A stretch of 64,000 nucleotides of DNA from Gammaproteobacteria bacterium (GCA_022071965.1 JAJVIQ010000019.1:136793-200792), one strand, 5' to 3'. Positions 2,878 through 20,654 are shown, counted from the stretch's first letter. Made by a program: numbers and translations. Notes: generated from the sequence alone by a model not told the origin.

Positions 2878-2965
2878 GCCGAGATGGCGGAACCGGCAGA
2901 CGCAGCGGACTCAAAATCCGCCGGGGTAACCCCCCGTGAGGGTTCGACTCCCTCTCTCGGCACCA
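2878..2965 (+). tRNA. leuX-like: tRNA-Leu(CAA), class II with long variable arm, CCA encoded
   Basis: GCCGAGATGGCGGAACCGGCAGACGCAGCGGACTCAAAATCCGCC...GGTTCGACTCCCTCTCTCGGCACCA. The acceptor stem GCCGAGA pairs with TCTCGGC, and the anticodon loop CUCAAAA gives anticodon CAA. It closely resembles E. coli leuX. Confidence 0.9.
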
Positions 2966-2966: not shown

Positions 2967-3157
2967 GTCCCCGTCCCCACGCCGCTCCAGCCGTCTCAGT
3001 CCGTCTACGTATCTAGCTGGAACTCAAGGTGTTTTTCGCGGTCTTACGCTCTACGCGTCCAAAATCGTCTCCATGAATCTCGTGTTTCGTGGGGGCATTT
3101 TTGGGGGCACCTGCCCCGCGAAATGGGGGCACATTTTTGCTGGGAGTCGAGTCCGAA

Positions 3158-4030
3158 ATGCCGTTGACAGTAGCCGCGATTAACCACGCCAGACCACGTG
3201 AGAAGGTCTACAAGCTCGCAGATGGTGGAGGCCTGTATCTTGAGGTCCATCCAACGGGCGCACGCTACTGGCGCTTGAAGTATCGCCACGCGAACAAAGA
3301 GCGTCGACTAGCAATTGGCGTATATCCCGATGTAACGCTCGCCGAGGCACGTACGGCGCGAGACAGTGCGCGCAAGCTCATCAAGAGCGGAAATGACCCG
3401 GTCGCGGTGAAGCGCGAGGTGCGCCGCAAAACCGAGTGCGAGGCGGCCAACACGTTCGAAATCATCGCCCGCGAATGGGTCGAGCACCAACGCGCACGCT
3501 GGACACCTGACCACGCAAGCACCGTCCTCCGGACCCTTGAGGCCAACGTGTTCCCAACCTTGGGGGCAAAGCCAATCACCAACATCACGGCGCCCGAACT
3601 GCTGGCGGCCATCCGCTCGGTTGAACGCCGCGATGCGCTGGAGGTTGCCTCCCGTGTGGCTCAGCGCTGCGGCGCGGTGTTCCGTTTCGCAATAGCGACG
3701 GGACCTACAACCCCGCTGCAGACCTTCGTGGCGCATTGAAGACAAGGAAGGTTACCCACCACCCCGCGCTCATGGCCAAGGACCTGCCGGAGTTCCTGGA
3801 TAACCTGGCTGCTTACGATGGCGATGAGCAGACTAAGAACGCCTTGAAACTCCTGATGCTAACCTTCGTCCGCACCGGTGAGCTTCGTGCCGCCGAGTGG
3901 AGCGAGTTCGACCTTGAGGGCGCGACTTGGCGCATACCGGCCGAGCGTATGAAGATGCGCGCACCTCACATCGTGCCGCTGTCGAAGCAGGCCGTCGAGG
4001 TCTTGAAGGCGCAGCAGGCACTTACCGGCC
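3158..4030 (+). pseudogene. int: P4-type tyrosine integrase, frameshifted and C-terminally truncated
   Basis: The N-terminus MPLTVAAINHARPREKVYKLADGGGLYLEVHPTGARYWRLKYR...RLAIGVYPDVTLAEARTARDSARKLIKSGNDP is the classic P4-integrase arm-binding domain. The reading frame breaks near 3712 at ...VFRFAIATG. The protein continues in the next frame (TYNPAADLRGALKTRKV...ELRAAEWSEFDLEGATWRIPAERMKMRAPHIVPLSKQAVEVL). Homology then ends near 4030, before the catalytic R..H..Y region. Confidence 0.75.
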
Positions 4031-4129
4031 TACCCGGGTTTCGAATTGTTGGCGGTTGGAAACCTGACAGCTCGGGAGCCTCCATAGCTAAACGCAAGAC
4101 GAATGGCACCAAGCCACCGCACCATCAAG

Positions 4130-4642
4130 ATGAACCGCGCCCCGGTGCTCACATTGTGGGCGGCCGTAGTGGCCGAGCGCTTGGGCTTCGACTGGGACGA
4201 GGCACTCACCATCGGTCGAGCCCTCGCCGGCCTGAACGCCTACGCCAAGGGCGTCTCCATCGGCCTGTTCCAGCCGACACCGAATGAGGTTAGGGAGCAG
4301 CGCCACAAGCTCCCCCCTGCGGAGACATTCACCGTCGACCTGCTGCATCGTGCGGTCCCGGCCGTCCATACCGGGCAGGGTGTGCGCGCACTGGACGAGG
4401 AGAAGCCCGCCGACCCGGCCAGCGTAAAGCAGTACCTGGAGGGCAAGTTCAAGGACGCCTTACCGGACGTGTACGAGGCTATGAAGACGCTTGCCGACGC
4501 CTACCCGCCAAGGAAACTCGCGGTAGAGGCCTACCACCTGTACGAGCAGTTCCGACCGGCCGTGCCCGCCGGGCAGCGTGGATGGGGTGCTGCCGGCGTA
4601 CTCGACCTCGACGCAATCAGAGGTCTGGCGCGGTTGGCCTAA
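4130..4642 (+). CDS. hypothetical protein (about 170 aa) of unknown function
   Basis: ORF 4103/4130..4642 (MNRAPVLTLWAAVVAERLGFDWDEALTIGRALAGLNAYAKGVSIG...). Its amino-acid composition looks coding. It is GC-rich, unlike the adjacent R-M genes. Its 3' end overlaps the res stop convergently by 26 bp. I recognise no family. Confidence 0.4.
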   Translation: MNRAPVLTLWAAVVAERLGFDWDEALTIGRALAGLNAYAKGVSIGLFQPTPNEVREQRHKLPPAETFTVDLLHRAVPAVHTGQGVRALDEEKPADPASVKQYLEGKFKDALPDVYEAMKTLADAYPPRKLAVEAYHLYEQFRPAVPAGQRGWGAAGVLDLDAIRGLARLA

Positions 4643-7600
4643 CATCCGCCGTTGCTGTCTCGGAGATCTGCGCCCCTACGTCACTTGCACGTTCCGCAAG
4701 CACGTACTGCCAGTAGCCGTAGGTTCCATCAGCATTCACTGCATTGGCCCACCGATGCGCCGCCTGCGCTTTCACGTCTTTCAGCGGGTCATACCCCTTC
4801 GTTTCAAATATCACAAACCGGTTGGATGTACCCTGCAGCCGGATGATGAAGTCGGGTATGTAGTCATGTGCCTGACCATCATGGAGATAAGGAATGGCAA
4901 ACCCGAGGTTGGCGTTCTTTACGAATGCTGAGACGTTGTCGTGAGTATCTATTGCGACAATAGCAGCCTGTTCCAGGCCGGAGTCGGCAACCATGAGGTT
5001 TAAATGACTCTTTTCAACTTGAACCACATTCTTGCTGGTCCAGAAATCGACTTCCGACGTGGTGCCCGGCCCGCGGTGCTTTTCAAACGACGGCAATTCC
5101 GCCGCCTCCCCTTGCATAACGTCCGGTTTAATGGCGGCGGTCAGTCGCTCGATGATCCAACCATAATAGGGGGATAGAAAGGCATCGAAGATGCTCGCGG
5201 GAGACAATGGCTTAACTCGCTCACGTAAATAACGGTCAACAATCTTCGCGATCTGCGGAAAAAGGGCGTGAGCTGGCGCTTCGCAGGAGGGTTGGGCGCA
5301 ATATTCTCGCGTCAGATCGCGCGCCATCTCAAACACCAGTGCCTGTAGGCGCTGGCCCGATCGGTAGGGATTGAGGTTCACGCTGACGATCTTTCCGGGG
5401 CCAAGCAACGAGTAGCGACCTTTGTTGCTTGGCACCCCGGCCTTCATTTCAACTTGTGGCGGGATTCTTACCGGATCCAGATCCAACGTTGCCACAGAGT
5501 TCCAATCAACGACAATACGATTAAGGATTTTTTGCCTGTATCCCATTACGCGAGGAAATTGAATTTCAAACTGCTTTTTCTGCGGAAGTGCATGGACGTG
5601 GAATCGCTTAGCGCGCGGTTGAGTAGGCGCACCCTGATTGGCCTTGAACGGAATGACCTCAAACGGCACTCCAAATATCTTCGCAACTTCCTCGCTGAGT
5701 AGCCCCGTGGTCTCGTCAATTTCGTAACTAGAACGCCGTAGCCCGCGACCCACCACCTGTTCGCACAGCAACTGCGACATGAATGGTCGCAGTCCGACGA
5801 TGTGAGTGACTGTGTTGCAGTCCCACCCTTCCGTCAGCATGCCGACGCTGACGATGCAGCGTATATCCCGACCCGGCGGGTGCGACGGGCGGCCGAGTTC
5901 TTTTGCCAGATCCTCGAAGCCATCGGGGTAAATTGGCCGCCCCGACCGATCGTTTGGCCAATTTACTTTGCCCACGGTGTCAAGCGTCAGCCGCATCCAA
6001 CGCATCTCGTCTGACTTCGCTTCATCGCTGTCTGTCTCGTGCACAACTTTGGTATCGACGCGAATTGTATGCGTCAACACGTCAGTGTTGCGTAGTTGCT
6101 CCAGCCGCGCCGACGCGATACCGGTTGGCGGTTTATCCTCTGCGAGCCACTCGTAGACTACCTTCGCGATTCGGGTGTTCTTGCAGACCAGAATAAACAC
6201 CGGCGGTCTTGGATCGTCAGTATTCCGGAGCCATTCCTTACGGGTCTGCTCCCACAACCCCCCCAACATGACTATCGGTGTGTATGCATACTGCAAGATT
6301 GCATCAGGTCTTGGATTGGCGCGCCGTCCACCACGCTGAGCAGCCGTCAGTTGAGGCAAAATCCAATGCCAGATGTTGAAGTACCCAGGAATCTCCTTGC
6401 CTGCCGTATCTCGCACCGCCAATTGCGGGATTTTCACCAGTCCCGACTCAATCGCGTCCGTCAACCCGAAATCGCTCACCACCCAAGGGAAGGTGCGATT
6501 GGTGTCCTGTCCGACCCGTCCGAGGTAATAGGGTGTCGCCGATAGATCCACACAGAAATTGATTCCTCGCAGCTTGTGAATACGGTCCAACCCGTCAATC
6601 CAGACAGTAGCTTCCTTGAAGAATTCGTCGATTTCCTCTTCATCGAATAAATCTTCCTCGCCCTCATCTGGCTCCGGTTTGCGGATGCGGTAGGCGTGAT
6701 GCGCCTCATCATTCAGCACGAGGATGTTTTTCTTTCCCCCAACCTCGCGCCCGAGTATTCGGTGAACGAGGGCCGTGTCGCTTTCAACGTACTTGCGCGA
6801 TTCGATGATTACTTTCTTCAGATTGCCGTCTATGTCGCACTCTTCCTCGATAATCTCAATCATTCCTGCATTAACCTGCCGCCGTAAATCCTCCAACGTC
6901 AGGTAGCGCGTGCCACGTGCCGTCGTCGACTTTTCTCCGATGGCGATCTTTTCCTTCACCCGTACCGGCTTGCCTGCCTTGGCAACCTTGGCGCTTGTCC
7001 CGCCAACTTGCACGGACTTCGGCTCGAATACGTGCCAGTTTGTGACTAGCACGCGCCCCTGCGTCATGAGCGGCATAAGGTGCTCAGGAATAAGGTCGCG
7101 GGTGCGGTAAAGACTCGCCTCGCCCGCCTCGGGATTCAACTCCGCCAAGCGGTTGCGGATGGTGACGTTGGGACAGACCACCAGCACCACATCGGAGAAC
7201 CGCCCGTCACTGCGATTGTTGAGCTTGTTAAGTATGCTCCACACGACCAACATGCCCATGACGGTCGTCTTGCCACTGCCAGTTGCCATCTTGCAGGCGT
7301 AGCGACGGAAGGCGCGATAGCCCTCGGCTCGGCGTTCCTCACTCATTTCATCCAGTGGCACATCGATACCTTGCAGGAAGTCCGACCGCGCCTCGGTGAG
7401 GAAAATAATCGTCTCCGCGGCTTCAAGCTGCGCGAAAAACAAACGATGCTTGCGTCCGTCGCGTCTCCAGTATTGAAGCAATTCTAATGAGGTGCGACTG
7501 ACACCGGGCCACTGCTGATCTCGCCACTCGCTGATCTGTTTTCGGACCTGATTTACCAACGTTAGATCTTGCCACTGCCCGCGCGCCTCATGTTCGCCAG

Positions 7601-7757
7601 CGTTGGATGTCCCCCGAGGTTCGCGATAGAAGTAACCGGCCGGACGGCGGCCTTTCCGCTCCTCTGGTGGTTCGCCTTCTGATATATACCAATATCGCGC
7701 CGGCTCCTCGTAGGGGCAGTTAAGGATTGGCTGCGGGACCTCGTAAGCCTCAGGCAC
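4617..7757 (-). CDS. res: Type III restriction enzyme Res subunit (SF2 helicase with C-terminal PD-(D/E)xK nuclease)
   Basis: 1046 aa. Walker A is CKMATGSGKTT and the DEAH box is LNDEAHHA. Helicase motif VI-like is QVVGRGLRR. The C-terminal YIPDFIIRL...FVIFETKG is a nuclease motif. It starts 2 bp after the mod stop. The region has visibly lower GC than its flanks. Confidence 0.85.
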   Translation of the reverse strand: MPEAYEVPQPILNCPYEEPARYWYISEGEPPEERKGRRPAGYFYREPRGTSNAGEHEARGQWQDLTLVNQVRKQISEWRDQQWPGVSRTSLELLQYWRRDGRKHRLFFAQLEAAETIIFLTEARSDFLQGIDVPLDEMSEERRAEGYRAFRRYACKMATGSGKTTVMGMLVVWSILNKLNNRSDGRFSDVVLVVCPNVTIRNRLAELNPEAGEASLYRTRDLIPEHLMPLMTQGRVLVTNWHVFEPKSVQVGGTSAKVAKAGKPVRVKEKIAIGEKSTTARGTRYLTLEDLRRQVNAGMIEIIEEECDIDGNLKKVIIESRKYVESDTALVHRILGREVGGKKNILVLNDEAHHAYRIRKPEPDEGEEDLFDEEEIDEFFKEATVWIDGLDRIHKLRGINFCVDLSATPYYLGRVGQDTNRTFPWVVSDFGLTDAIESGLVKIPQLAVRDTAGKEIPGYFNIWHWILPQLTAAQRGGRRANPRPDAILQYAYTPIVMLGGLWEQTRKEWLRNTDDPRPPVFILVCKNTRIAKVVYEWLAEDKPPTGIASARLEQLRNTDVLTHTIRVDTKVVHETDSDEAKSDEMRWMRLTLDTVGKVNWPNDRSGRPIYPDGFEDLAKELGRPSHPPGRDIRCIVSVGMLTEGWDCNTVTHIVGLRPFMSQLLCEQVVGRGLRRSSYEIDETTGLLSEEVAKIFGVPFEVIPFKANQGAPTQPRAKRFHVHALPQKKQFEIQFPRVMGYRQKILNRIVVDWNSVATLDLDPVRIPPQVEMKAGVPSNKGRYSLLGPGKIVSVNLNPYRSGQRLQALVFEMARDLTREYCAQPSCEAPAHALFPQIAKIVDRYLRERVKPLSPASIFDAFLSPYYGWIIERLTAAIKPDVMQGEAAELPSFEKHRGPGTTSEVDFWTSKNVVQVEKSHLNLMVADSGLEQAAIVAIDTHDNVSAFVKNANLGFAIPYLHDGQAHDYIPDFIIRLQGTSNRFVIFETKGYDPLKDVKAQAAHRWANAVNADGTYGYWQYVLAERASDVGAQISETATADVRPTAPDL

Positions 7758-7759
7758 GT

Positions 7760-10537
7760 CTACCGAGCCTCCTTCAGCGACTTCACGACCATTAACTCAT
7801 TGCCGCGGTCGTCGATGACTTTTACCGCCACTTGACCATGCTCGCCAGCTTCGAACGGTGCACTGACACTGCCGGCGAGATGTTCCCACACCGAGTCTTG
7901 GAACTCCCCTTTAAGCGCCCTCTTGAGGGAATCCCAAGCGCCTGTGCGGGGGAAAAATGCCTGGCAGACGTGAAAGCACAGGCCGTTGTAATCGGTGTCG
8001 AGGAACCAGGCCGGCACATCGTCACCTTTTCGCTGGTCCACCTCCATCGTCACGGGATCGAAAACATCCAGACCAAGCAATTTGACGGCATAGCACAATG
8101 GCTCATCCGCGACAGTCTTAACCTTGCTCACCTTGACCTCGGGAAGTCCACAGACGCTAAAGATCTGGCTGGAACGCATGTTCTTGAGCAAATCACCCAT
8201 GAGCAAATCGGGCGTTGCTTGCACGTACGTCGCGGGCACACCTACCGCCGCCTCGCACTTCTCGATCAGTTTTCGTGCGTCAGGCTGAATCGCAAAGCCG
8301 ATTACGTACAAGTAATCATAATGCTTGGCATGTGCCTCACGCGCCGCTTCGTAAACCAGTTTCTCGCTGACGGCACCACCCTCTGGTCCGAATACGATGG
8401 CAACAGGACGGCCGGATAAAGGCAACGTGCTGCTGTTCTCCTCGTCTGCGACCTGCAATGCCTCGTCAATCGATATCGGGCCTGGTATGTGCGCGACCTC
8501 AACAATCGCCTCAGCAGAAAGCGTGAGGGTCTTCGCTGGTGGGCGGACATTGCGCAGGGTGGCCGACTTACCGCCATCGATATGTAGCGCCGGCGAGCGG
8601 CGTAGCACTTCAAGCATGCGGTCGACGAAGCTGCCGTGCGACTCCGCCACGGTGGCGACGCCGGAATCCTCGACGCCGTCTCCCTCCCAGTCTATAGGCG
8701 TGGGGATGGTCGCCTCGACACAGAAGGGACCGGTGACTCTCGTGATTTTGTCATTAGTCTCTGGTCGGTCCACCAGCACCTCTTCAGCGGGCGGTTCGTC
8801 ATTGGCGATACTCCCGAGCGTAATATGCGGCACGATACCGCCGACCTCCTCGCCCTTGCTGTTCTGTCTCCGCTTGTAGACGAAACCGCCGGCAGGGCCG
8901 CGGTCGCACTCCTTCAGTTCGTAGTACGGGAACGTGGCAGTGAGCAGCCGTTGCCTCGCCAAAGCCAGTGGGACTCGGCTTGTATCAACGGTTATCCAGC
9001 GCCGCCCCCACTGTTCGGCGACATAAGCTGTGGTGCCGCTACCGCAAGTCGGATCCACGACAAGATCACCTGGGTCTGTGGTCATCAGCATGCAGCGTTG
9101 TATGACCTTGGCCGTTGTCTGAACCACATATGACTGCTCTTCCGTGAAGCTCCCGGCCCCGCTATCGGTCCATACGTTGTTCAAATACGCCACCGGGAAA
9201 TCATCGAGAAAAGATGCCGCCCGAACGTTATCCCCTACGGGGAAAACACGTCCAAGTTCCGCAAGACGCTGGAGACCACTCATGGTGAACCTCCAATGTT
9301 TGTTGTGCGGAACTCGGTATGAGCGACCCTTAAACTCGAAGACTTCGTCCGAGTTCTTGCTCGCGCCCTGAGCATATAGGGCCATACTCTGAAACAGGCG
9401 AATCCCCTTCGGTACCTTGTCGGGGTGCTGTTGCTCACCCATAGAAACTGTCTTGACGTCGCCAGCCGAATCAAAGTAGTACCGGAATGCTGCCAATCCT
9501 GCAGGCGCCTGATCCCGAGGAAAGAACAACTGCCGATATTTCATCCGCGACGGGTCTTTGGAGTACCAAAGAAGGTAGTCGCACACTGTCGGTAGACGTC
9601 CTGTATCTAACCCTCCCGTTTTCTTGAATGAAATTTGGCTCACGAACGATTCCGCTCCGAAAATTTCATCCATTACCTCGCGAACATGATGCACATTCTC
9701 ATCTGAGATCTGCACGAATATGCTGCCGGACGGTGCAAGTAAGTCGCGGGAGAGCAATATCCGGTCGCGCAAATAGGTGAGATAGGAGTGCAGGCCCAAC
9801 TCCCAGGTGTCGCGGTAGGCCTTAACCATCTCCGGCTCGCGCGTCATGTCCTCGTCGTCATTGTGGGCTACGTCGCGCCTGCGCACGAATGGTTGGAAAT
9901 TACTCCCGAATTTCACCCCGTAGGGCGGGTCCATATATATCATCTGCACCTGCCCTCCCATGCCCTCATAGTGCAGAAGCGAGTTCATCGCTGCGAGCGA
10001 GTCCCCGAGCACCATACGGTTTGTCCAGCCGTTCATGTGCTCGTAGGCGCGGAGCACCTGTTCGTGAATCGGATGCTGCCGGTCCCCGAACAGGTCAAAC
10101 AGGTCGATCTGCCTATCGCGCTTGTGGCCTTTCAGCGTTTCGAGGATGGCGCGGGTGCTTAGTCGTTCATGGATGAACAGCGGCAATGTCGGCACGTCGA
10201 ATGACAGGCGCTCGGCCTTGCCAGCCCAGTTAAGGAAGGGCTTGCTGAAAGCGCGAAGTTTCTCGGCGGCGGCCTTGGCCTCGCCCAAATCCTTGGCTTC
10301 AAGAATCTGGCGAATCAGCGTCTCACCTTGCTCCCTCGTCGGGTTCTGTCCATCCCAATCCAACGCCGGAGACAGTGAAGAATCGAATCGGTATGTTTTT
10401 GGTGGCTTCTTCTTCCTGAACTGTGCCTGTGTGCCGACCTCTGGGCGCAGTAGCAATGAGGCGGTAGGGTGACTGTAATTTTCAGTTTGTTTTCCTGGTT
10501 GGCCAGTAGCTTTCTCTCGGCCCTTTTTCCTCGGCAT
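7760..10537 (-). CDS. mod: Type III R-M Mod subunit (beta-class N6-adenine/N4-cytosine DNA methyltransferase), unusually long
   Basis: Motif IV IYMDPPYGVKFGSNF precedes motif I VVDPTCGSGTTAYVAEQWGRRWITVD, a circular permutation typical of Type III Mod. There are about 400 aa after motif I. The ORF is open to 10612 (alternative starts at 10612 and 10570). The ATG at 10537 (MPRKKGREK) follows a G-rich RBS. Confidence 0.85.
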   Translation of the reverse strand: MPRKKGREKATGQPGKQTENYSHPTASLLLRPEVGTQAQFRKKKPPKTYRFDSSLSPALDWDGQNPTREQGETLIRQILEAKDLGEAKAAAEKLRAFSKPFLNWAGKAERLSFDVPTLPLFIHERLSTRAILETLKGHKRDRQIDLFDLFGDRQHPIHEQVLRAYEHMNGWTNRMVLGDSLAAMNSLLHYEGMGGQVQMIYMDPPYGVKFGSNFQPFVRRRDVAHNDDEDMTREPEMVKAYRDTWELGLHSYLTYLRDRILLSRDLLAPSGSIFVQISDENVHHVREVMDEIFGAESFVSQISFKKTGGLDTGRLPTVCDYLLWYSKDPSRMKYRQLFFPRDQAPAGLAAFRYYFDSAGDVKTVSMGEQQHPDKVPKGIRLFQSMALYAQGASKNSDEVFEFKGRSYRVPHNKHWRFTMSGLQRLAELGRVFPVGDNVRAASFLDDFPVAYLNNVWTDSGAGSFTEEQSYVVQTTAKVIQRCMLMTTDPGDLVVDPTCGSGTTAYVAEQWGRRWITVDTSRVPLALARQRLLTATFPYYELKECDRGPAGGFVYKRRQNSKGEEVGGIVPHITLGSIANDEPPAEEVLVDRPETNDKITRVTGPFCVEATIPTPIDWEGDGVEDSGVATVAESHGSFVDRMLEVLRRSPALHIDGGKSATLRNVRPPAKTLTLSAEAIVEVAHIPGPISIDEALQVADEENSSTLPLSGRPVAIVFGPEGGAVSEKLVYEAAREAHAKHYDYLYVIGFAIQPDARKLIEKCEAAVGVPATYVQATPDLLMGDLLKNMRSSQIFSVCGLPEVKVSKVKTVADEPLCYAVKLLGLDVFDPVTMEVDQRKGDDVPAWFLDTDYNGLCFHVCQAFFPRTGAWDSLKRALKGEFQDSVWEHLAGSVSAPFEAGEHGQVAVKVIDDRGNELMVVKSLKEAR

Positions 10538-10762
10538 AACTACCCCCCAACTGAAGATTTCCTTGTTCATCACCGACGGTCCCCAGTCGGTTGCCAATTG
10601 TTCACGACACATAGAGTACAGGTGACTGCCTCAGATTCCCAAGCTTGGCAGCGAAGTCAATCGCGCCACTTAGGCTTCTGCTGCAACTAGATGCCGACGG
10701 CCACTGTACCGCTCGCCCATCCCGCCCCAAGCTGGTTCAATTTCCGCCCAACGGCGGTTGAG

Positions 10763-10996: not shown

Positions 10997-12042
10997 TCAT
11001 GCGTCGGTGTCCTCTGGCACCAGCATCCACACGCGCTTCAGCGGCAGTTCGGCCTGTATCTCCGCCGGCAGTCGCTCATAAGTCCGGTAAATCGCCTCGA
11101 CGAGATCGCGGCTCTCCCATAACCGCACCGTGAAATGGCCCTGCCGAGCCTCACTCAGCACTGACCCTTTGAAACCGCCCCAACACACGAGCAAGCCTTG
11201 CTCCGCCTTGAAGGTCTGCATCGAGCCCTGCAACGTCCGGTAAATCGTGACGTCAGCGGGACTGTTTTGCGACTTCACCTGCACGCAGAGTCGCGGGACG
11301 TCAAGGCCGAGGGGACCGCGTCCACCTAGGATGTCGACACCTCCATCCGCCCCGGGAGGCGACACTTTTGTTACCCAACCGTCGGCCTGTAGCACCGCAT
11401 CCACGAGGCTCGCTAACGCGTGACCCGCAAACCGTGTCTGGATATGTGCCACGATTTGGTCATGGGCGAGCTGCGCGAGATCGGGAACTTCCTCGGGTTC
11501 GAGTGTGGGTGGGGCCGCGCCCGCCTTTTTCGGCTTGCCGAGCGCTACCGAGGGGCCGGGATCCGGCTTGCCGGCCAGCACCGCTGCGACACGCCGCTCC
11601 GCGTCGTTGCGTGAGATGTTGCAGACCGTCATGAAGGCGCCGAACGAGTGCAGCAGGTCTTGCTCGAACGCGGTGCGCGGCACGTCCGGCCGCAACCATT
11701 CCACCGCTCGGGTATGGCGCAAATCGCTGCCGACCTTCTGGTATCGGTAAGGCCCTTTCACACGCCCGATGGCAATCTGTGATGTCAACTTGCGTGGTAG
11801 CACGACGAGGTCGCCCTCGTTCATCGCAATCACAAATGCCCCGTGATATTGCCGACAGCGCGCGGCTTGGCACCCGGCAGGCTGGCTTCGACGATCTTGA
11901 AGATGGCATCGTAATCCTTCGCCCCCTCCAGTGATGGGATGTGCCGGAAACCGATAATGGCGAGATTACCTTCTAGAGCGGCCTCCTCGTCCTCCCCCAG
12001 CCTGCCCGCTCGCGTCAGATAGACCTTTGGTACCTCACTCAT
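10997..12042 (-). pseudogene. mrr-like: Mrr-like (Type IV) restriction endonuclease, split by a frameshift
   Basis: The upstream 70-aa ORF (MSEVPKVYLTRAGRLGEDEEAALEGNLAIIGF...AKPRAVGNITGHL) matches the N-terminus of Mrr-cat family restriction enzymes. The downstream 278-aa ORF continues the same family (MNEGDLVVLP...) and carries the Mrr catalytic core GGVDILG...LCVQVKSQ. The two ORFs are joined by an ATGA start/stop overlap at 11830-11833. Confidence 0.65.
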
Positions 12043-12169
12043 TGCATTCCTCCGGAAGTTTCAAATAGCAAAGCATAAATAGGTACCAGTTGAAGGAACT
12101 CGGGTGGCGCTTGGAGAGCGGATCGTTTGCGAAGACCAAACCGTGCGCAAGGAGGCTACCCGATGAAAG

Positions 12170-12420
12170 TAAGTGTACTGGAGATGCCGTGGCCCGTCTG
12201 GCGGCAACTGCAGCGCGTGGTGAAGAAGTCGCGAGACGTCGACCATGTATGATGTGCGCCGAGGTTGCTGAGGCTGCACGTACTGGGCGGTAATGTGAGC
12301 GCGGCCGCGCAGGTGTGTGGCGCCTCACGCGGGGCACTGCGGCATTGCCCAACGCTCTACGAGAGCGGCGGTAAGCAGCCCTCGCACCGAAGTGGCGTGG
12401 GCTCAAAAATATTAGCTCAG
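12170..12420 (+). pseudogene. IS630/IS481-like transposase N-terminal HTH remnant
   Basis: Frame-broken peptide ELPWPVWRQLQRVVKKSRDV ... RLLRLHVLGGNVSAAAQVCGASRGALRHCPTLYESGG resembles the N-terminal HTH of IS630/IS481-family transposases. No DDE domain follows. Confidence 0.35.
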
Positions 12421-12425
12421 AGATC

Positions 12426-13112
12426 ATGCGCTACGCCATAGCCACAGGCCGTCGCAAGGACGACCCGGCCGCGGCTTTGAAAGGAGCATTCAAGACCCGA
12501 ACAGCTGAGAATCACCCCCACCTCGAACGCGCCGACCTGGGGCCATTCCTGCGCAAACTCCATGACTACGCTGGTCGGCACGAAACACGGATCGCCGTAC
12601 AACTGCTGATGCTGACTGCCGTTCGGACTGGCGAGCTGCGGGCCGCCAAGTGGACCGAGATAGATTTCAGCGCCAAAGAATGGAGCATCCCGGCGGATCG
12701 GATGAAGATGCGGTCACCGCACGTCGTTCCGCTCTCCCGGCAGGCCATTCGATTGCTGGAAGAACTGAAGACCTACACCGGCTACAGCGAGTACCTGTTC
12801 CCCAACCATGGCAAGCACCCGCACATGAGCGAGAACACGGTCAACAAGGCACTGCACGGCCTCGGTTACAAGGGCGAGCTCGTGGGCCACGGCTTTCGCG
12901 CCACATTCAGCACAATCGCCAATGAATCCGGGAAGTTCAATCCGGATGCCATCGAGCGGTCGCTGGCGCATAAGGACAAGAACCCTGTTCGGGACATATA
13001 CAACCGCGCCAAGTACCTGCCGGAGCGACGGAAGCTGATGCAGTGGTGGGCAGACGATCTCGATGCTGCCCAGAATGGAGCGAAGATTGTGCGCCTCACA
13101 CGACGTGATTAG
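12426..13112 (+). pseudogene. int: P4-type integrase fragment (catalytic domain only, N-terminal half missing)
   Basis: Begins MRYAIATGRRKDDPAAALKGAFKTR..., corresponding to the middle of P4-type integrases. It includes HVVPLSRQAIRLL, HGFRATFST and a C-terminal RD-containing tail. There is no arm-binding domain. Confidence 0.75.
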
Positions 13113-13250: not shown

Positions 13251-13889
13251 ATGAATAAGGCGCCCCTCCGCACCTACGTCTATATCGACGGGTTCAATTT
13301 TTACTACGGGCAAGTCAAAGGCACCCCCTGGAAGTGGCTCGATCCCGTCGCCCTGTTTCGGAAAGTCCTCCGCCCTCAAAACGACATTCGCAAGATCAAG
13401 TATTTCACCGCACGAGTCGAACCCACACCCTACGACCCTGACGCGAACGTTCGACAGGACACATACCTCAGGGCACTGACGGCTCACTGCCCAAACGTAG
13501 AGCTACATTTTGGTCACTTTCTCCGTCATCAGATTTTCATGGAGAACGCCAATCCACCGCCTGGCAAGGTCTGCGTTTGGAAGAACGAAGAGAAGGGCTC
13601 CGACGTAAACCTCGCGCTGCACCTGCTGAATGATGCCTGGAGGGATGAGTACGACTGCGCCGTCGTCGTCTCGAATGACTCCGATCTTGCTGAGGCACTT
13701 AGAATGGTTCGCGAACAGAACGGCAAAGTCATCGGTGTGGTTACTCCAGGCGCACCGAAACGGAGAACATCATGCCAACTCGCCAAGTATGCTCACTTCA
13801 TCAGCCCGATAAGAAAGTGGGCTCTGCAGGCCAGTCAGCTACCTTCCCCGATTCCTGGAACGACGATCAGGAAGCCGGATACCTGGTAG
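13251..13889 (+). CDS. NYN-domain (PIN-like) ribonuclease family protein
   Basis: 212 aa. Motifs YIDGFNFYYG, GSDVNLALHL and VVSNDSDL are typical of the NYN/LabA-like nuclease fold. A GAGGG RBS precedes the ATG. Confidence 0.75.
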   Translation: MNKAPLRTYVYIDGFNFYYGQVKGTPWKWLDPVALFRKVLRPQNDIRKIKYFTARVEPTPYDPDANVRQDTYLRALTAHCPNVELHFGHFLRHQIFMENANPPPGKVCVWKNEEKGSDVNLALHLLNDAWRDEYDCAVVVSNDSDLAEALRMVREQNGKVIGVVTPGAPKRRTSCQLAKYAHFISPIRKWALQASQLPSPIPGTTIRKPDTW

Positions 13890-14099: not shown

Positions 14100-14669
14100 G
14101 TGGCGCAAACGAGGTTACCCATGCGAAAGATCCGCGAGGTATTGCGACTCAGGTATGAGCACGGCCTGAAGGACGGCCAGATCGCCGCGGCCATTGGCTC
14201 GGCGCGCTCCACGGTGCAAGAGTGCGTGCGCCGGGCACAGCAGGCAGGGTTGAGCTGGCCGCTGCCCGAGGGGTTGGACGAGCTGGCGCTGCAGTCGCTG
14301 TTGTATCGGCGCGAGGTGCCGCTGTCGCGCACGCCGGCACCGGATTTCGCCAGGCTGCATGCCGAGCTCAAACGTCCCGGGGTGACACGGCTGCTGCTGC
14401 GGCAGGAGTACAAGGCCGAGCGCCCCGATGGCTGGCAGTACAGCGTGTTCTGCGATCAGTACCGTCGCTGGCTGGCGCGTCAGGATGTGGTGCTGCGCCA
14501 GCAGCACGTGCCCGGCGAGAAGCTGTTCGTGGACTACGCCGGGCAGACGGTGGCGGTCATCGATCGGCACACCGGTGAGAGCCGCCCCGCGCAGATCTTC
14601 GTGGCCGTGCTCGGCGCCTCCAGCCACACCTATGCCACTTGTTCTTCGTGGACGGCGGGGCGGCAATGA
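14100..14669 (+). mobile_element. istA: IS21-family transposase IstA, N-terminal fragment (truncated)
   Basis: MRKIREVLRLRYEHGLKDGQIAAAIGSARSTVQECVRRAQQAGLSWPLPEGLDE... matches the IstA N-terminus. The ORF is interrupted after about 180 aa, where an IS5-family fragment begins on the opposite strand. Confidence 0.75.
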
Positions 14670-15251: not shown

Positions 15252-16028
15252 TTACCCTGCTTGCCTCAGGTTCGCGCCGAGGACATCGCTGACCAGTTCG
15301 CCCCCGCCTTCGCGAATGGCATCGTGCAAGATCACTCTTACTTCGCGTAGAAACTCCTCGGAGTGCGCGTCAAGAGCCGGTCCAGGCACAGGCGCGGAAT
15401 TCTCGTAAATCATGCGAATGACGCTAGCGCGGTCATAGGTGGACCCGCGTCCGCGATAGTCAAACGCTCTCATCCAGTCCCTGCGCGGGACGCGCAACAG
15501 CTTCTGTTCCACATAGCCGTGCAACCGAGCGAAAACAGCGCGCTGGACCTGGGACAGCGCGGCGTCGGCTTCCGGCTCGCTCGGCGCACGCGGCTGCCAG
15601 CGGATCGGCTTGTCGAGAAACTTAGTAATCGATTCCGACAGGCGCGCCACGAGATCCGCGACGGGCTTAAGATCCTTGTACTCGCCCTCATTGATGTCGA
15701 GCACCACGCGGCGGTTCATCGCCTTGACTTCTGCCCAATGCGCCTTGCGGACAGTGGACGATCCCGTAAACAGGATGGCGTTCCAGCGCGCATGAAACTC
15801 GGCAGCAGCCGCTTGGATGGCGAGAACGAGTCCAGCCGTATCGTAAACGGGACAGACTTCCGCAACGTCCGCCGGCATGATGGCGGCTTCGCAGAAATCC
15901 ATCAGCTTGAGCAACTCGCTTACGGGTCCGCGCTGCTTCTCTGTCAGGGGGCGGTTGAGGAAACCGAGCATGAAGCAGCGTTCATCAAGCCCGCGTTCAA
16001 TCGCCCGGCGGTGGTGCTCCGAGATCAT
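15252..16028 (-). CDS. hypothetical protein, 258 aa, unknown function
   Basis: The ORF has a balanced, coding-like composition (MISEHHRRAIERGLDERCFMLGFLNRPLTEKQRGPVSELLKLMDFCEAAIMP...). The opposite-strand ORF is Arg-rich junk. I recognise no family. Confidence 0.45.
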   Translation of the reverse strand: MISEHHRRAIERGLDERCFMLGFLNRPLTEKQRGPVSELLKLMDFCEAAIMPADVAEVCPVYDTAGLVLAIQAAAAEFHARWNAILFTGSSTVRKAHWAEVKAMNRRVVLDINEGEYKDLKPVADLVARLSESITKFLDKPIRWQPRAPSEPEADAALSQVQRAVFARLHGYVEQKLLRVPRRDWMRAFDYRGRGSTYDRASVIRMIYENSAPVPGPALDAHSEEFLREVRVILHDAIREGGGELVSDVLGANLRQAG

Positions 16029-16200
16029 GCGCTACGCCATTGCCACCGGCCGGCGTCGCGACGACCCTGCAGCCGCTCTCAAGGGAGCGTTCCGGACACG
16101 CGCGGCCACACACCTCCCCGCCCTGTCACGCACCGAACTCGGTCCCTTCCTGCGGGCGCTGGTCGAATACCCCGGCCGTACCGTGCGGGTGGTAAAGACG
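16027..16200 (+). pseudogene. int: third P4-type integrase remnant (short internal fragment)
   Basis: MRYAIATGRRRDDPAAALKGAFRTRAATHLPALSRTELGPFLRALVEY... begins at the same residue as the fragment at 12426. Homology is lost after about 55 aa. Confidence 0.55.
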
Positions 16201-16311: not shown

Positions 16312-18756
16312 TCAAAACGTGGCGCACAAGGTCCGCCACATCACCTCGGCAGGCAGCGGTTCGCTGAACAGATAGCCCTGTGCTATATCGCAGTGGTTGG
16401 CACGCAGGAAATCGCGCTGCAGTTCGTTTTCGACGCCTTCGGCCACCACCTCCAATCGTAGCTGCCGCGCCATTGCCAGGATGGTCTGGACGATGACCAC
16501 GCTGTTGCCGTCCTCGGGCACGTCCTTGATAAAGGAACGATCGATCTTCAGCCTATCTAACGGCAGATGCCTCAGCATGCTTAGAGAGGAATATCCGGTC
16601 CCGAAGTCGTCGATGGCGATCGAAATCCCTAGCTTGCGTAACTCGCGTAGATGACTGGAATCCTGGCCCAATGCTTGCAGCGTACTTTCGGTGATCTCCA
16701 GTTCAAGCAGGTACGGTGGAAGTCCGCTGTCCTGAAGGGCCTCGATGACAATCCGATCGAAGCTACGATTGATGAGCTGTCGTGCCGACACATTGACTGC
16801 CAGTCGCGTCGGAGGCAGGCCATCTCGATGCCACTGCGCTACATCGCGACAGGCCTGGTCGAGCACAAAACGTCCGATCGGATCGATGAGCCCGTTCTCC
16901 TCTGCGATGGGAATGAACCTCACGGGCGGGATGAACCCACCTTGCGGCTGCGGCCAGCGCACCAGAGCCTCGACCGCGGCTACGCGCGCTGTGGCGAACT
17001 CCACCTGCGGCTGATAGTAAACGCGGAACTCCTTCTGTCTTAGCCCTCTGCGGATCCCCTGTTCAAGGGTCACGCGCTCCTTGGCTCGATGTGACATCTC
17101 CGGGGTGTAGAAACAGTATTGATTTCGCCCGATCGATTTTGCCGTATACATCGCGGTATCCGCCGCGCTTAACAGGCCTGCAATCGTCTCGCCGTCATTC
17201 GGATAAACCGACAGGCCCATGCTGGCAGTGATTGTCACTGTTTCGTTGCCCACGTCCATAATCTCCGAGATCGCCTCCTGCAGCTTGCGAGCGATCTTGG
17301 CAACATCCTCGGCGTGCGAAATGGAGTCGAGCAGGATCACGAACTCGTCGCCACCGAGTCTCGCTGCCGTATCGCCGCGCCGCAGGGCCGACTTGACCCT
17401 AACCGTTACCGTCTTAAGGACGGCGTCCCCAGCGGCGTGCCCGAGCGTATCGTTGATGAACTTGAACTCATCCAGATCCAGATAGATGAGACCGAATATC
17501 CCCTTCGCACGAGCCGCGCGCTGAATCGTCTGCTCAAGCCTATCGCTCAACAGCAAGCGGTTCGGCAGACCGGTCAGGGCATCGTGATGAACGAGGAAGT
17601 TGAGTTGCTCCTCTGTCTGGCGGATGGCGCTGATATCGGAGAACGCGATTATGTAGCGCAATACCGCCCCCTGCTTGTCGCGAACAACGGCGGTGCTGCA
17701 CCAGATCGGAAACACGCGATCCCCCTTGTGTCGGCAGAGCATTTCGCCAGACCAGCTGCTCTTCGTGTCGGTGATGACCAGCGGCGACACCCGATCGTCC
17801 GGTGAACGCGTGTGCAGAAGGTCGTGCATTCTTTGTCCGACCACCTCGGTCGCGGTGTATCCCGTGATCCGACTGAAGGCGGGATTGATGGAGAGAATCT
17901 GCTGTGCGGCATCCAGCACGAGAACGCCCTCCGCGATGCCATCATATATGGCTGCCGCCTGTCGCAACTGCTCCTGCGCACTCATGAGCGCGGTAATGTC
18001 ACGAATGACGCCGATCAGCCGCAGAGCGTTCCCGCGATGCTCGAAGCGTACGGACGCCTGAACCTCCAGGTAATGGAGTTCTCTGCCATGCATTCTCCGG
18101 TATACGCGACGCACCGCATGGCCCGCAGCCTTCGCGGCCTCCAATAACTTTCCAACCGGCTCACGATCCTCCGGGTGTAGATCCGCGATGAAGCACTCGC
18201 CGGCAACAGCCTGGACGTACAAAAATCCTCTCTCGGGGATACCGCCTCCGTCATGCACCAAATTGCCGGTTGCAGGATCCCATTCCCACACGCTCATCTC
18301 GGCCGCCGACAGAGCCAGCCGCAGACGCTCTTCGCTCCGCGCACGCGCCGATTCAGCTGCATGTCGCGCCAGGGCCATTTGCAACGTGCCGTGCAATTCA
18401 CGCACCGTACAAGGCTTCACGAGATAGCCGAAAGGGGAGGTGGTCTTGGCCCGCTCAATCGTCTCATTTTCGGCGTAGGCAGTGAGGAAGATTACCGGAG
18501 TGCGGAAGTTCTTCTGGATGTAGTCGGCAGTGTCGATGCCGTCGAGCATGCCCTCCAGATGGATGTCCATGAGTACCAGGTCCGGGTTCCCATTTTCGAT
18601 CTGATGGATCGCCTGCTCGCCGGTAGCCGCCATTCCACTCACAAAATAGCCCAGAGTCTCGAGTTGCTGCTTCAGGTCCAGCGCGACGATACGCTCGTCC
18701 TCCACCAGCAATATGTTCGTCCGCGCATTCATCGATTTTCTCCGCTGATGGGACAC
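16312..18756 (-). CDS. response regulator with REC, PAS, GGDEF and EAL domains (c-di-GMP turnover)
   Basis: 814 aa. The N-terminal REC domain is LLVEDERIVALD...LMDIHLEG. The GGDEF motif RLGGDEFVILL is intact. EAL motifs EALVRW and DDFGTGYSS are present. Confidence 0.85.
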   Translation of the reverse strand: MSHQRRKSMNARTNILLVEDERIVALDLKQQLETLGYFVSGMAATGEQAIHQIENGNPDLVLMDIHLEGMLDGIDTADYIQKNFRTPVIFLTAYAENETIERAKTTSPFGYLVKPCTVRELHGTLQMALARHAAESARARSEERLRLALSAAEMSVWEWDPATGNLVHDGGGIPERGFLYVQAVAGECFIADLHPEDREPVGKLLEAAKAAGHAVRRVYRRMHGRELHYLEVQASVRFEHRGNALRLIGVIRDITALMSAQEQLRQAAAIYDGIAEGVLVLDAAQQILSINPAFSRITGYTATEVVGQRMHDLLHTRSPDDRVSPLVITDTKSSWSGEMLCRHKGDRVFPIWCSTAVVRDKQGAVLRYIIAFSDISAIRQTEEQLNFLVHHDALTGLPNRLLLSDRLEQTIQRAARAKGIFGLIYLDLDEFKFINDTLGHAAGDAVLKTVTVRVKSALRRGDTAARLGGDEFVILLDSISHAEDVAKIARKLQEAISEIMDVGNETVTITASMGLSVYPNDGETIAGLLSAADTAMYTAKSIGRNQYCFYTPEMSHRAKERVTLEQGIRRGLRQKEFRVYYQPQVEFATARVAAVEALVRWPQPQGGFIPPVRFIPIAEENGLIDPIGRFVLDQACRDVAQWHRDGLPPTRLAVNVSARQLINRSFDRIVIEALQDSGLPPYLLELEITESTLQALGQDSSHLRELRKLGISIAIDDFGTGYSSLSMLRHLPLDRLKIDRSFIKDVPEDGNSVVIVQTILAMARQLRLEVVAEGVENELQRDFLRANHCDIAQGYLFSEPLPAEVMWRTLCATF

Positions 18757-20654
18757 ATGAAGTCAATCCGATACGCGGTTCCCTCACCCTCCTGCAGGAC
18801 GATGGCAAGTCTTGCCTGATCGGCCAGCAATGGCACGATCTGCAGACCCAGTGAAGGTGACTTTCCGAGTGCTATGTTCGGCGGCAATCCCACGCCGTCA
18901 TCGGCAATCAACAGGCGCCGCGGCCTGCCGCTCTCGACCTCAAGCCTGATGTGAATGCGGCCGTCCCGATTGCACGGGAATGCATGCTGTAGGGCATTCG
19001 ACAAGAGTTCGTTCACGAGCAGCCCGCAGGGAATCGCGCGCTGCAGCTCCAGGTGGGCCTCAGGCAGAGCCGCGTCGATCACGATGCGCGGTACTGCGGT
19101 GTCGGGCATTGAGCTGCGAAAGACATTCTCAACCAGACGCCGCAGGTATTCGCCGAGATTCACGCGCGAATGTTCCTTGCGCTCGTAGAGCAGCTCATGC
19201 GTCAAGGCCATCGCCGCGATACGGTTGCGCGATTCAGTGAGGGCCGCTTTGACAACTTCGTCCCGGCTGCTGTCCGCCTGCAGGCTGAGCAGACTGGAAA
19301 TCACCTGCAGATTGTTTTTCACGCGGTGATGTATCTCGTCGAGCAGAAGGGTTTTCTCCTTGAGTGCGGCCTCCACGTGCTCTTGCGCCTGCCGGCGCAG
19401 CGTGATGTCCGTGATTGCGGCGAGCACGGCAGGACCGGCACCCGTGTCGATGAGGCTCAGTCCGACCTCCACGGGAAACTCGGTACCGTCCTTGCGGATC
19501 GCGTACACGTCACGGCCGGCTCCCATTTGGCGGGTTACGGGATCGCGGAAGAACTCCGCGCGCAGACCTACATGCTCGCTGCGCGCGCGCTGCGGCACCA
19601 ACATTTCAATCGACTTGCCCAACAGCTCGTCGCGCATATAGCCGAACAGCCGCTCCGCCTGGTTGTTGACTAACAATATGACTCCACTTTGATCGGTTAT
19701 AAGCATGGAGGTGGGTGCCGCAAGCACGGCGTTTCGGAAACGCTCCTCGCTATCACGCAGGGCTTTTTCGGTGCGTTTGAGATCGCTGATGTCGGCGTAG
19801 GTGCCCAGCATTCCGCCGGCCTGGCCGTGCTGATTGAGCAGAGGCACCTTGGAGATGGACAGCCACACCTGAGCGCCTTCGGCGTCGAGCCTTTCTTCGA
19901 CAACATTGAGCATCGGCTTACGAGAGTCGATCACCCGTGCACGGCTGTCGGCAAGAGACTCGGCGATGGAGGCGCGGGCGGGAATGTCGGTGTCGACCAG
20001 TCCAACGACGTTGCTTCTGCGGACATCGCGTCGAAACGCGCGGTTGGCGCCGAGGAAACGGCCGTCGAGGTCCTGCCAAAAGATTGGCTGCGGTATGACG
20101 TCAATTATCGACCGCAACCAGTGCTCCGAAGCGATTGCCCGATCACCCTGTTTGGTCAGTTCATGCATGACGCCGATCTGCTCGGCAGCAAGGGATAATG
20201 CGTCTACGCAGCCACGACAGTCCTGTCGCGGCTCACCATCCAAAACGGCGAGGAAACCCACCGATCTGCCTCTCTCTTCGAGGATGGCGACGCTGGTCAG
20301 AAAGCGCATCGCGCCGTCGCTGCCTTCCGCAAGCTCGCGAAAGCGCGGATCGGCAAGGGTATCTTTGACAATCAAAGGGACATCCGCCTGCGGTGCATGA
20401 CATGCAAGCAGCCGGACTGCGGCAGAGGTCGACGCGACTCCATGACCCGCCTCCAGCCCGCCTAGACCCTCTAGGCCGAGGCGTACGTACGCCCTCGCCA
20501 CGCGGCAGAGCCGCGCCGACAACCGTACAGCACTTTGCAGAAATCGCCGCCGAACCTCGGCGCCGTGCGTTGTTTGGACGAAGGGTTCAGTGCCGTTATC
20601 CGCGACCATGGCTTGCGCCCAATCAGACATATACGATCGCAGCATTTCCACCAA
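18729..20654 (-). CDS. sensor histidine kinase, HisKA_2/HWE-type, with GAF and PAS domains
   Basis: 641 aa. The H-box EIHHRVKNNLQVISSLLSLQ is HisKA_2. A C-terminal HATPase region (LLVNELLSNALQHAF...DDGVGLPP) is present. It overlaps the downstream response-regulator gene by 28 bp. Confidence 0.8.
   Translation of the reverse strand: MVEMLRSYMSDWAQAMVADNGTEPFVQTTHGAEVRRRFLQSAVRLSARLCRVARAYVRLGLEGLGGLEAGHGVASTSAAVRLLACHAPQADVPLIVKDTLADPRFRELAEGSDGAMRFLTSVAILEERGRSVGFLAVLDGEPRQDCRGCVDALSLAAEQIGVMHELTKQGDRAIASEHWLRSIIDVIPQPIFWQDLDGRFLGANRAFRRDVRRSNVVGLVDTDIPARASIAESLADSRARVIDSRKPMLNVVEERLDAEGAQVWLSISKVPLLNQHGQAGGMLGTYADISDLKRTEKALRDSEERFRNAVLAAPTSMLITDQSGVILLVNNQAERLFGYMRDELLGKSIEMLVPQRARSEHVGLRAEFFRDPVTRQMGAGRDVYAIRKDGTEFPVEVGLSLIDTGAGPAVLAAITDITLRRQAQEHVEAALKEKTLLLDEIHHRVKNNLQVISSLLSLQADSSRDEVVKAALTESRNRIAAMALTHELLYERKEHSRVNLGEYLRRLVENVFRSSMPDTAVPRIVIDAALPEAHLELQRAIPCGLLVNELLSNALQHAFPCNRDGRIHIRLEVESGRPRRLLIADDGVGLPPNIALGKSPSLGLQIVPLLADQARLAIVLQEGEGTAYRIDFMCPISGENR

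Follow-up and report, generated by a model that had tools for sequence, protein, structure and literature searches.

Modification-dependent (Type IV-like) restriction enzymes have a standard design in which a PUA-type reader is fused to a nuclease (reviewed in PMC12707154). MspJI and AspBHI, which combine an SRA-like reader with a PD-(D/E)xK nuclease, are the closest described enzymes to the gene discussed here in terms of whole-protein fold, a likeness drawn from the predicted structure of an intact relative. Escherichia coli Mrr, a Type IV enzyme, shares the PD-(D/E)xK domain Mrr_cat with this gene, but the N-terminus here is PUA-like where Mrr has the Mrr_N winged helix. Other points of comparison are VcaM4I and further EVE/YTH-nuclease fusions, as well as the YTH-like N-domain of Thermococcus gammatolerans McrB, from which the gene differs in that its nuclease is Mrr_cat and not HNH or McrBC. 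Two-subunit Type IV enzymes also exist, such as GmrS/GmrD (PMC4437046).

The family to which the gene belongs is PDC-S02, whose members are proteins of about 351 aa with an N-terminal DUF8426 domain and a C-terminal Mrr_cat domain. PDC candidates were nominated for being embedded in BREX, DISARM, or Type I restriction-modification (R-M) loci (bioRxiv 10.1101/2024.01.29.577857). One PDC-S02 representative, when assayed in E. coli B, gave no protection against T7, T5, or T4 (bioRxiv 10.1101/2024.09.26.614923). PDC-S02 is thus a candidate defense family, and modification-dependent cleavage by its members is putative.

The window analyzed here is a stretch of 64,000 nt from a Gammaproteobacteria bacterium (GCA_022071965.1, JAJVIQ010000019.1:136793-200792), the source being a metagenome-assembled genome. 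Its minus strand carries two short overlapping ORFs, deposited in GenBank as hypothetical proteins, with the following layout.

11830..12042, minus strand: ORF of the 5' fragment, 70 aa with an ATG start (GenBank MCG3202368.1)
10997..11833, minus strand: ORF of the 3' fragment, 278 aa from the GTG at 11833
from ATG 11824, minus strand: GenBank version of the 3' fragment, 275 aa (MCG3202367.1)
12049..12053, minus strand: GGAGG Shine-Dalgarno sequence, 6 nt 5' of the ATG of the 5' fragment
11830..11833, minus strand: GTGA stop/start overlap, TGA 11832..11830 over GTG 11833..11831
11837..11841, minus strand: site of a 10-nt deletion, with one GGGCA kept
11573..12042, minus strand: interrupted DUF8426 reader domain region, predicted from intact relatives to fold as a YTH/EVE-like PUA domain
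11093..11431, minus strand: Mrr_cat (PF04471) PD-(D/E)xK nuclease domain, with its D...QxK motif (GGVD...CVQVK) intact

Judged by profile and homolog comparisons, the two ORFs are one gene of the PDC-S02 family (Pfam DUF8426 plus Mrr_cat). Mrr_cat occupies residues 135-247 of the 278-aa piece (PF04471, E 6.3e-18 in Pfam), and the catalytic motif agrees with invariant columns of the family. The two pieces together span nearly all of the 346-position PADLOC model PDLC04815, at positions 2-65 for the 70-aa piece (E 1.8e-10) and at 72-344 for the 278-aa piece (E 3e-113), which is far beyond chance. When the intact homolog P0004 was compared with the window by tblastn, its residues 1-70 fell on 12042..11833 and its residues 72-350 on 11839..11003 in another frame (joint E 3e-169), leaving W71 alone unaccounted for. 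A conceptual fusion of both pieces matches 2566 relatives. Among the best 120 of these 2566, all but one are single proteins of 342-361 aa with DUF8426 and Mrr_cat (119 proteins, 70-88% identity), the sole short entry being the 275-aa annotation of the window itself; DUF8426 (PF28530) was assigned through precomputed domain matches on the relatives together with alignment. The suggestion of an earlier note that a single restriction-type gene with an Mrr-type core lies in two ORFs, at 11830..12042 and 10997..11833, is therefore borne out by the Mrr_cat, PDLC04815, and tblastn matches, coordinates included. Members of the family have an uninterrupted N-terminal DUF8426 in one ORF of about 350 aa, which the window copy, split at residue 70/71, does not have. 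The locus is thus a pseudogene of the PDC-S02 family and not an intact member, and the annotation of MCG3202367 and MCG3202368 as hypothetical proteins should be corrected to one broken gene.

The same note described a single frameshift with an ATGA junction. On inspection, the overlap is GTGA and the lesion is a 10-nt deletion, which appears as one clean gap in a DNA alignment with four intact homologs (window GGGGCA----------TTTGTG versus GGTCAGCTGTGGGCATTCGCC). In a longer view, the window reads ..ACGGGGCA----------TTTGTGATTGCGATG.. where a relative reads, for example, ..GCGGGTCAGCTGTGGGCATTCGCCGTCGCAATG.., and the length of the gene, 1046 nt in the window versus 1056 nt in 351-aa relatives, agrees with a loss of 10 nt. 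The junction now reads ACG GGG CAT TTG TGA (uninterrupted deletion allele GGGGCATTTGTG). The CA and TTTG brought together by the deletion read His-Leu, a chance mimic of the ancestral Gln-Leu, and are followed directly by the TGA, which is in frame solely owing to the deletion. The 5' fragment accordingly holds ancestral residues 1-68 and then a His-Leu-stop made by the junction, and the 3' fragment holds ancestral residues 74-351, comprising the linker and the Mrr_cat nuclease as well as what remains of the reader domain. The native codons Ala72-Phe73-Val74-Ile75-Ala76-Met77 are still present in the downstream frame; the GTG of the junction is the native Val74 codon, and the first ATG in the 3' ORF (11824..11822), three codons past the GTG and used as the start by the depositor, is native Met77. 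A G-rich stretch (GGGG) lies 5 nt 5' of the overlapping GTG and may allow the 3' piece to be translated to some degree.

Relatives read GG(G/T)CA-GxTGT-GGGCx at the site, and the deletion could be placed at more than one position within the repeat. The ancestral junction, reconstructed from the DNA of more distant relatives and the protein sequence of a paralog, is ACG GGG CAG xTG TGG GCA TTT, in which GGGCA occurs twice, 10 nt apart. One copy is left in the window, which is the expected footprint of a slipped-strand deletion, and the deletion probably arose by replication slippage between the two GGGCA repeats. A metagenome scan with a degenerate pattern for junction alleles (FVIAMNEGDL) gave no match, nor did blastn of a plasmid collection with the gene.

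The paralog is intact. It is a 351-aa protein (MCG3201226.1, NFCOHLIN_01092; P0121 among the relatives) encoded on a separate 148.8-kb contig that is placed in the same genome by its shared locus-tag prefix, and it is the only other member of the 90%-identity cluster of the window's 275-aa protein. This protein matches positions 3-344 of the PDLC04815 model (E 6e-132). It reads ..GNFTGQLWAFVIAMNEGDL.. / ..PRAIGNFTGQLWAFVIAMNEGDLIV.. (TGQLWAFVIAM) through the junction and so matches the reconstruction exactly. Overall it is 96% identical to the window copy. Only 5 of 280 residues differ 3' of the junction, indicating that the 3' part is without further decay and that the deletion is recent; 5' of the junction 9 of 70 differ, one of which is the junction-made Q69H. 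The intact paralog can supply the function lost with the window copy.

Taken together, these results favor genuine inactivation, one of three alternatives raised in the earlier note, and it is likely that the locus is a real, recently inactivated pseudogene of a single-gene, approximately 351-aa putative Type IV-like enzyme. Slippage between the GGGCA repeats would have removed the codons around W71 and shifted the frame, with a TGA two codons later, and the downstream frame would by coincidence open at the GTG of native Val74. The GTGA overlap and the tidy division into 70 and 278 aa would then be by-products of the deletion and not a matter of design. A caveat to this reading is that both fragments are otherwise undamaged and that the catalytic motif is intact.

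Homologs that occur naturally as a pair of genes divided at this boundary would speak against inactivation. No such form was found among the best 120 of the 2566 proteins, in 45 related loci (44 of them from species-representative genomes), or among sampled matches to the 70-aa piece. Complete copies in the 45 loci are single ORFs, apart from four that are broken at other positions. Three of the four have frameshifts, near residue 293 (L025), residue 275 (L040), and residue 180 (L041). The fourth, L037 (6579..8939), has an IS630-like insertion near residues 45-50, with a transposase that is itself in two ORFs, and a later frameshift; it was considered as a split near residue 69 and rejected, being the product of the insertion and further damage and not a natural two-gene form. 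In L025, hsdM and hsdR are split as well as the DUF8426 gene, which suggests either indel errors from long reads or an operon that is decaying as a whole. A HMMER scan with the 70-aa piece matched 116 cluster representatives, many of them short proteins. In those inspected, the conserved N-terminus gives way to an out-of-frame tail after differing residues (e.g., 68, 71, 73, 77, and 78). From their sequences, these short proteins are read as other broken or error-containing copies that have no common boundary.

The broken gene lies in a low-GC region of about 18 kb (~3.0-21.5 kb), with a GC content of 0.55-0.63 compared to 0.69 in the core that makes up the rest of the window. The features of this region, other than the gene itself, are as follows.

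2878..2965: tRNA-Leu(CAA), at the start of the low-GC region
3089..3739: ORF with the Arm-binding and central domains of a first P4-type integrase, frameshift at ~3715-3730
3736..4287: ORF with the remainder of the first integrase, catalytic-domain positions 3-82 of 172, unrelated sequence from ~4040
4103..4642: 179-aa ORF between the integrase remnant and the Res gene, of coding type (GC3 0.82)
4617..7757, minus strand: BPTD_3080-family restriction endonuclease, a Res-like helicase-nuclease, 1046 aa, full length
7760..10612, minus strand: Type III-like DNA methyltransferase (Mod), N6/N4, 950 aa, MTase_III E 1e-144
12426..13112, plus strand: second P4-type integrase, 5'-truncated, positions 182-403 of 413 of PRK09692 (NCBIfam)
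13251..13889: NYN-domain protein, 212 aa, full-length match to the PADLOC candidate HEC-09 (E 4e-45)
14100..14669: N-terminal fragment of an IS21-family transposase, profile positions 1-154 of 294, GC 0.675
~16000..16150: scrap of a third integrase, Phage_int_M positions 68-96

The first integrase is both frameshifted and 3'-truncated, and the second is without its first ~180 residues. The pieces beginning at 3089 (profile positions 6-189) and at 12426 (182-403) were considered as one integrase split by the R-M block; this was rejected because the first integrase runs into the catalytic domain and because the two are just 54% identical in amino acid sequence where they overlap. The BPTD_3080-family gene scores 1033 bits against its NCBIfam equivalog (profile positions 2-968 of 970), and from their sequences it and the Mod gene apparently form an intact two-gene R-M system at 4617..10612. 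The 179-aa ORF has no match in Pfam, NCBIfam, or PADLOC. HEC-09, to which the NYN-domain protein corresponds, gave no phage protection in its defining paper (bioRxiv 10.1101/2024.01.29.577857). The remainder of the IS21 element was not found, and the GC content of the fragment is higher than that of the surrounding island. The segment 16016..16154 is a 139-nt repeat with 73% identity to 12415..12553, and this repeat and the integrase remnants suggest several tandem or nested island remnants. Further along, 16312..20654 encodes a response-regulator/PAS/GGDEF/EAL protein (814 aa) and a PAS/HisKA_2 histidine kinase (641 aa) at a GC content of 0.59-0.61, and these signaling genes appear to be part of the acquired region. 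No direct repeat of the tRNA-Leu 3' end of at least 16 nt delimits the island. The broken gene is one of several damaged genes in this mosaic, decaying island, and the locus is of little importance alone, being another pseudogenized defense gene.

The state of the neighborhood also bears on the possibility that the gene is intact in the organism and that the 10-nt gap arose during assembly or polishing of the bin, for example through confusion with the paralog. The source is a metagenome bin, and a paralog of about 96% identity could confuse the placement of reads. Frameshifted fragments of the PDC-S02 family are common in metagenome protein sets, and some long-read bins have several frameshifts in one operon, such as L025 with its split hsdM, DUF8426 gene, and hsdR. 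Consensus indel errors, however, are typically of 1-2 nt and lie in homopolymers, whereas the loss here is of 10 nt and is bordered by a 5-nt direct repeat that can be reconstructed, the signature of biological slippage. The 42-kb core contains no split genes outside the island; it includes intact ORFs of 1632 and 1689 aa (about 5 kb each), and ten adjacent same-strand ORFs in it match different families, mostly with near-complete profile coverage. In addition, the other broken genes in the window are all mobile-element genes of the island, and several of them are truncated rather than frameshifted. An artefact of sequencing or assembly is therefore considered improbable, and a recent inactivating deletion is the preferred reading.

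Within the inactivation reading, the cause of the loss may be considered. About 30 of the 45 loci have the DUF8426 plus Mrr_cat gene within a Type I R-M operon, flanked by hsdM and hsdS, and about 13 of the 45 are orphans. The embedded copies often share 4-nt stop/start overlaps with their neighbors. The relatives' predominant location inside Type I operons is in keeping with the way PDC candidates were nominated, by "guilt by embedding" (bioRxiv 10.1101/2024.01.29.577857). An example is L045 (4052..11512), in which an AAA_21/DUF4276 pair follows hsdR and a PIN toxin precedes hsdM; the gene is also embedded in L046 and in many of L001-L038. In contrast to these relatives, the window copy carries the 10-nt deletion and has no Type I genes near it: neither hsdM, hsdS, or hsdR nor remnants of a Type I system flank the gene in the window, making the copy an orphan, and a short ORF that overlaps the stop of the gene by ATGA has no detectable similarity to hsdS. 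A tblastx comparison of the window island with the homolog loci showed no meaningful synteny outside the gene, and the Res and Mod pair next to a DUF8426 gene is absent from all homolog loci compared. The copy lies outside the usual operon of its family, in a low-GC tRNA-Leu island full of broken mobile-element genes.

The presence of Mod invites the proposal, made in the earlier note, that the gene was lost because the enzyme attacked DNA methylated by a newly arrived Type III system. An apparently intact Mod and BPTD_3080-family endonuclease lie directly downstream, the predicted reader fold resembles m6A-binding YTH domains, and the GC content of Mod and Res (0.56 versus 0.63 in the broken gene) is compatible with separate arrivals. 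If the loss was indeed selected against Mod, the YTH-like reader would sense adenine methylation. However, an intact paralog of 96% identity persists in the same bin, and residence beside an m6A methyltransferase is normal for the family, as the approximately 30 of 45 loci inside Type I operons indicate. Given that decay affects the island as a whole, neutral loss is enough to explain the broken gene. The tie between the inactivation and Type III methylation is unsupported, and selected loss is an unlikely form of the inactivation that is otherwise favored.

The predicted architecture of the protein shows where the break falls. In the AlphaFold model of the closest relative, P0001, an N-domain extends from residue 1 to about 160, followed by a disordered linker (169-188) and Mrr_cat (192-345). 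Modeled alone, the N-domain has a pLDDT of 86 and a pTM of 0.81, and in fold comparison it matches YTH/EVE-like members of the PUA superfamily; the whole intact protein matches the modification-dependent enzymes AspBHI and MspJI. A search of PDB sequences with the family profile gave no match. DUF8426 is thus predicted to be a PUA-superfamily reader of modified bases, as the predicted structure of the family has the N-terminal reader fold of that superfamily (SRA/EVE/YTH/ASCH), which makes the intact protein a putative modification-dependent (Type IV-like) restriction endonuclease. By analogy to MspJI, AspBHI, and VcaM4I, recognition would involve binding or flipping of a modified base by the reader, and the nuclease would cut close to it. 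The label of Type IV, in the sense of modification-dependent, gains support from the predicted PUA-like reader joined to Mrr_cat and from the fold matches to AspBHI and MspJI. The description "Mrr-like" in the earlier note fits the catalytic domain (PF04471) but not the N-terminus, since a Pfam search finds no Mrr_N in the window pieces or in the first 200 residues of P0001. Mrr_cat is the sole Pfam domain found in P0001 and the window pieces, which differs from the Mrr_N plus Mrr_cat arrangement of the E. coli Mrr type.

The 70-aa piece, which had been taken for the conserved N-terminus of the family, is that in terms of sequence (positions 2-65 of PDLC04815) but is not a self-contained module. 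It encodes the opening strands and helices of the PUA-like domain and makes up the first ~40% of a domain of about 160 residues. The break at residue 70/71 falls in the middle of a helix (residues 60-76) of the compact reader domain, where the confidence of the model is 83-95, and it is away from the linker. A boundary inside a helix of the reader domain is no natural module boundary. All aligned relatives have Q69 and F73, which are thus invariant, and at least 90% of 23 aligned N-domains keep W71. When the locus is read as two ORFs, Q69 is changed to His, and W71, A72, and F73 are in neither product. With these conserved residues (Q69, W71, and F73) lost and the helix broken, a working reader domain formed from the two pieces is unlikely on the predicted structure. 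With helix 60-76 cut and Q69, W71, A72, and F73 in neither ORF, even translation of the 3' piece by re-initiation would not be expected to preserve modification-dependent targeting.

It is against this structure that a functional two-piece enzyme must be judged, in which the GTGA would couple translation of the two ORFs and their products would reassemble, or the 278-aa product alone would serve as a nuclease with altered targeting. The stop and start overlap by 4 nt and have a G-rich stretch 5 nt to their 5' side, neither ORF is damaged in any other way, the D...QxK motif is kept, and the two-subunit GmrS/GmrD (PMC4437046) is a precedent. The boundary, however, is not shared by any homolog examined and interrupts a helix halfway along within a compact domain, and invariant Q69 and F73 and near-invariant W71 are missing from both products. 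Furthermore, the boundary was made by a deletion relative to the intact paralog, which leaves no time for adaptation to a split, and no sign of such adaptation is seen. The translationally coupled enzyme that the earlier note had offered is thus very unlikely. Even when all non-neutral interpretations of the deletion are pooled, namely a GTGA-coupled 278-aa product acting as a split enzyme with the 70-aa peptide or as a re-targeted nuclease, and selected loss against Mod, a non-neutral deletion is quite improbable. Restoration of the full-length protein by programmed -1 ribosomal frameshifting or phase variation has a negligible probability: the downstream ORF is in the -1 frame of the upstream ORF and overlaps it, but no X XXY YYZ slippery heptamer precedes the stop (ACG GGG CAT TTG TGA), no simple-sequence tract for reversible variation is present, a read-through product would still miss three residues and carry substitutions in the conserved helix, and aligned relatives are in a single frame at the junction.

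The most useful by-product of the comparison is the structural prediction for PDC-S02/DUF8426, a YTH/EVE-like reader joined to an Mrr-type nuclease. It is of modest value and provides a testable hypothesis, modification-dependent restriction, for a widespread candidate defense gene. Divergence between the broken gene and its paralog is uneven, with differences at 8 of the 69 comparable residues of the 5' fragment versus 5 of 280 in the 3' part (Fisher p ~0.001). Possible reasons are that the N-terminus generally evolves faster in the family, or that the two paralogs have recombined or undergone gene conversion.
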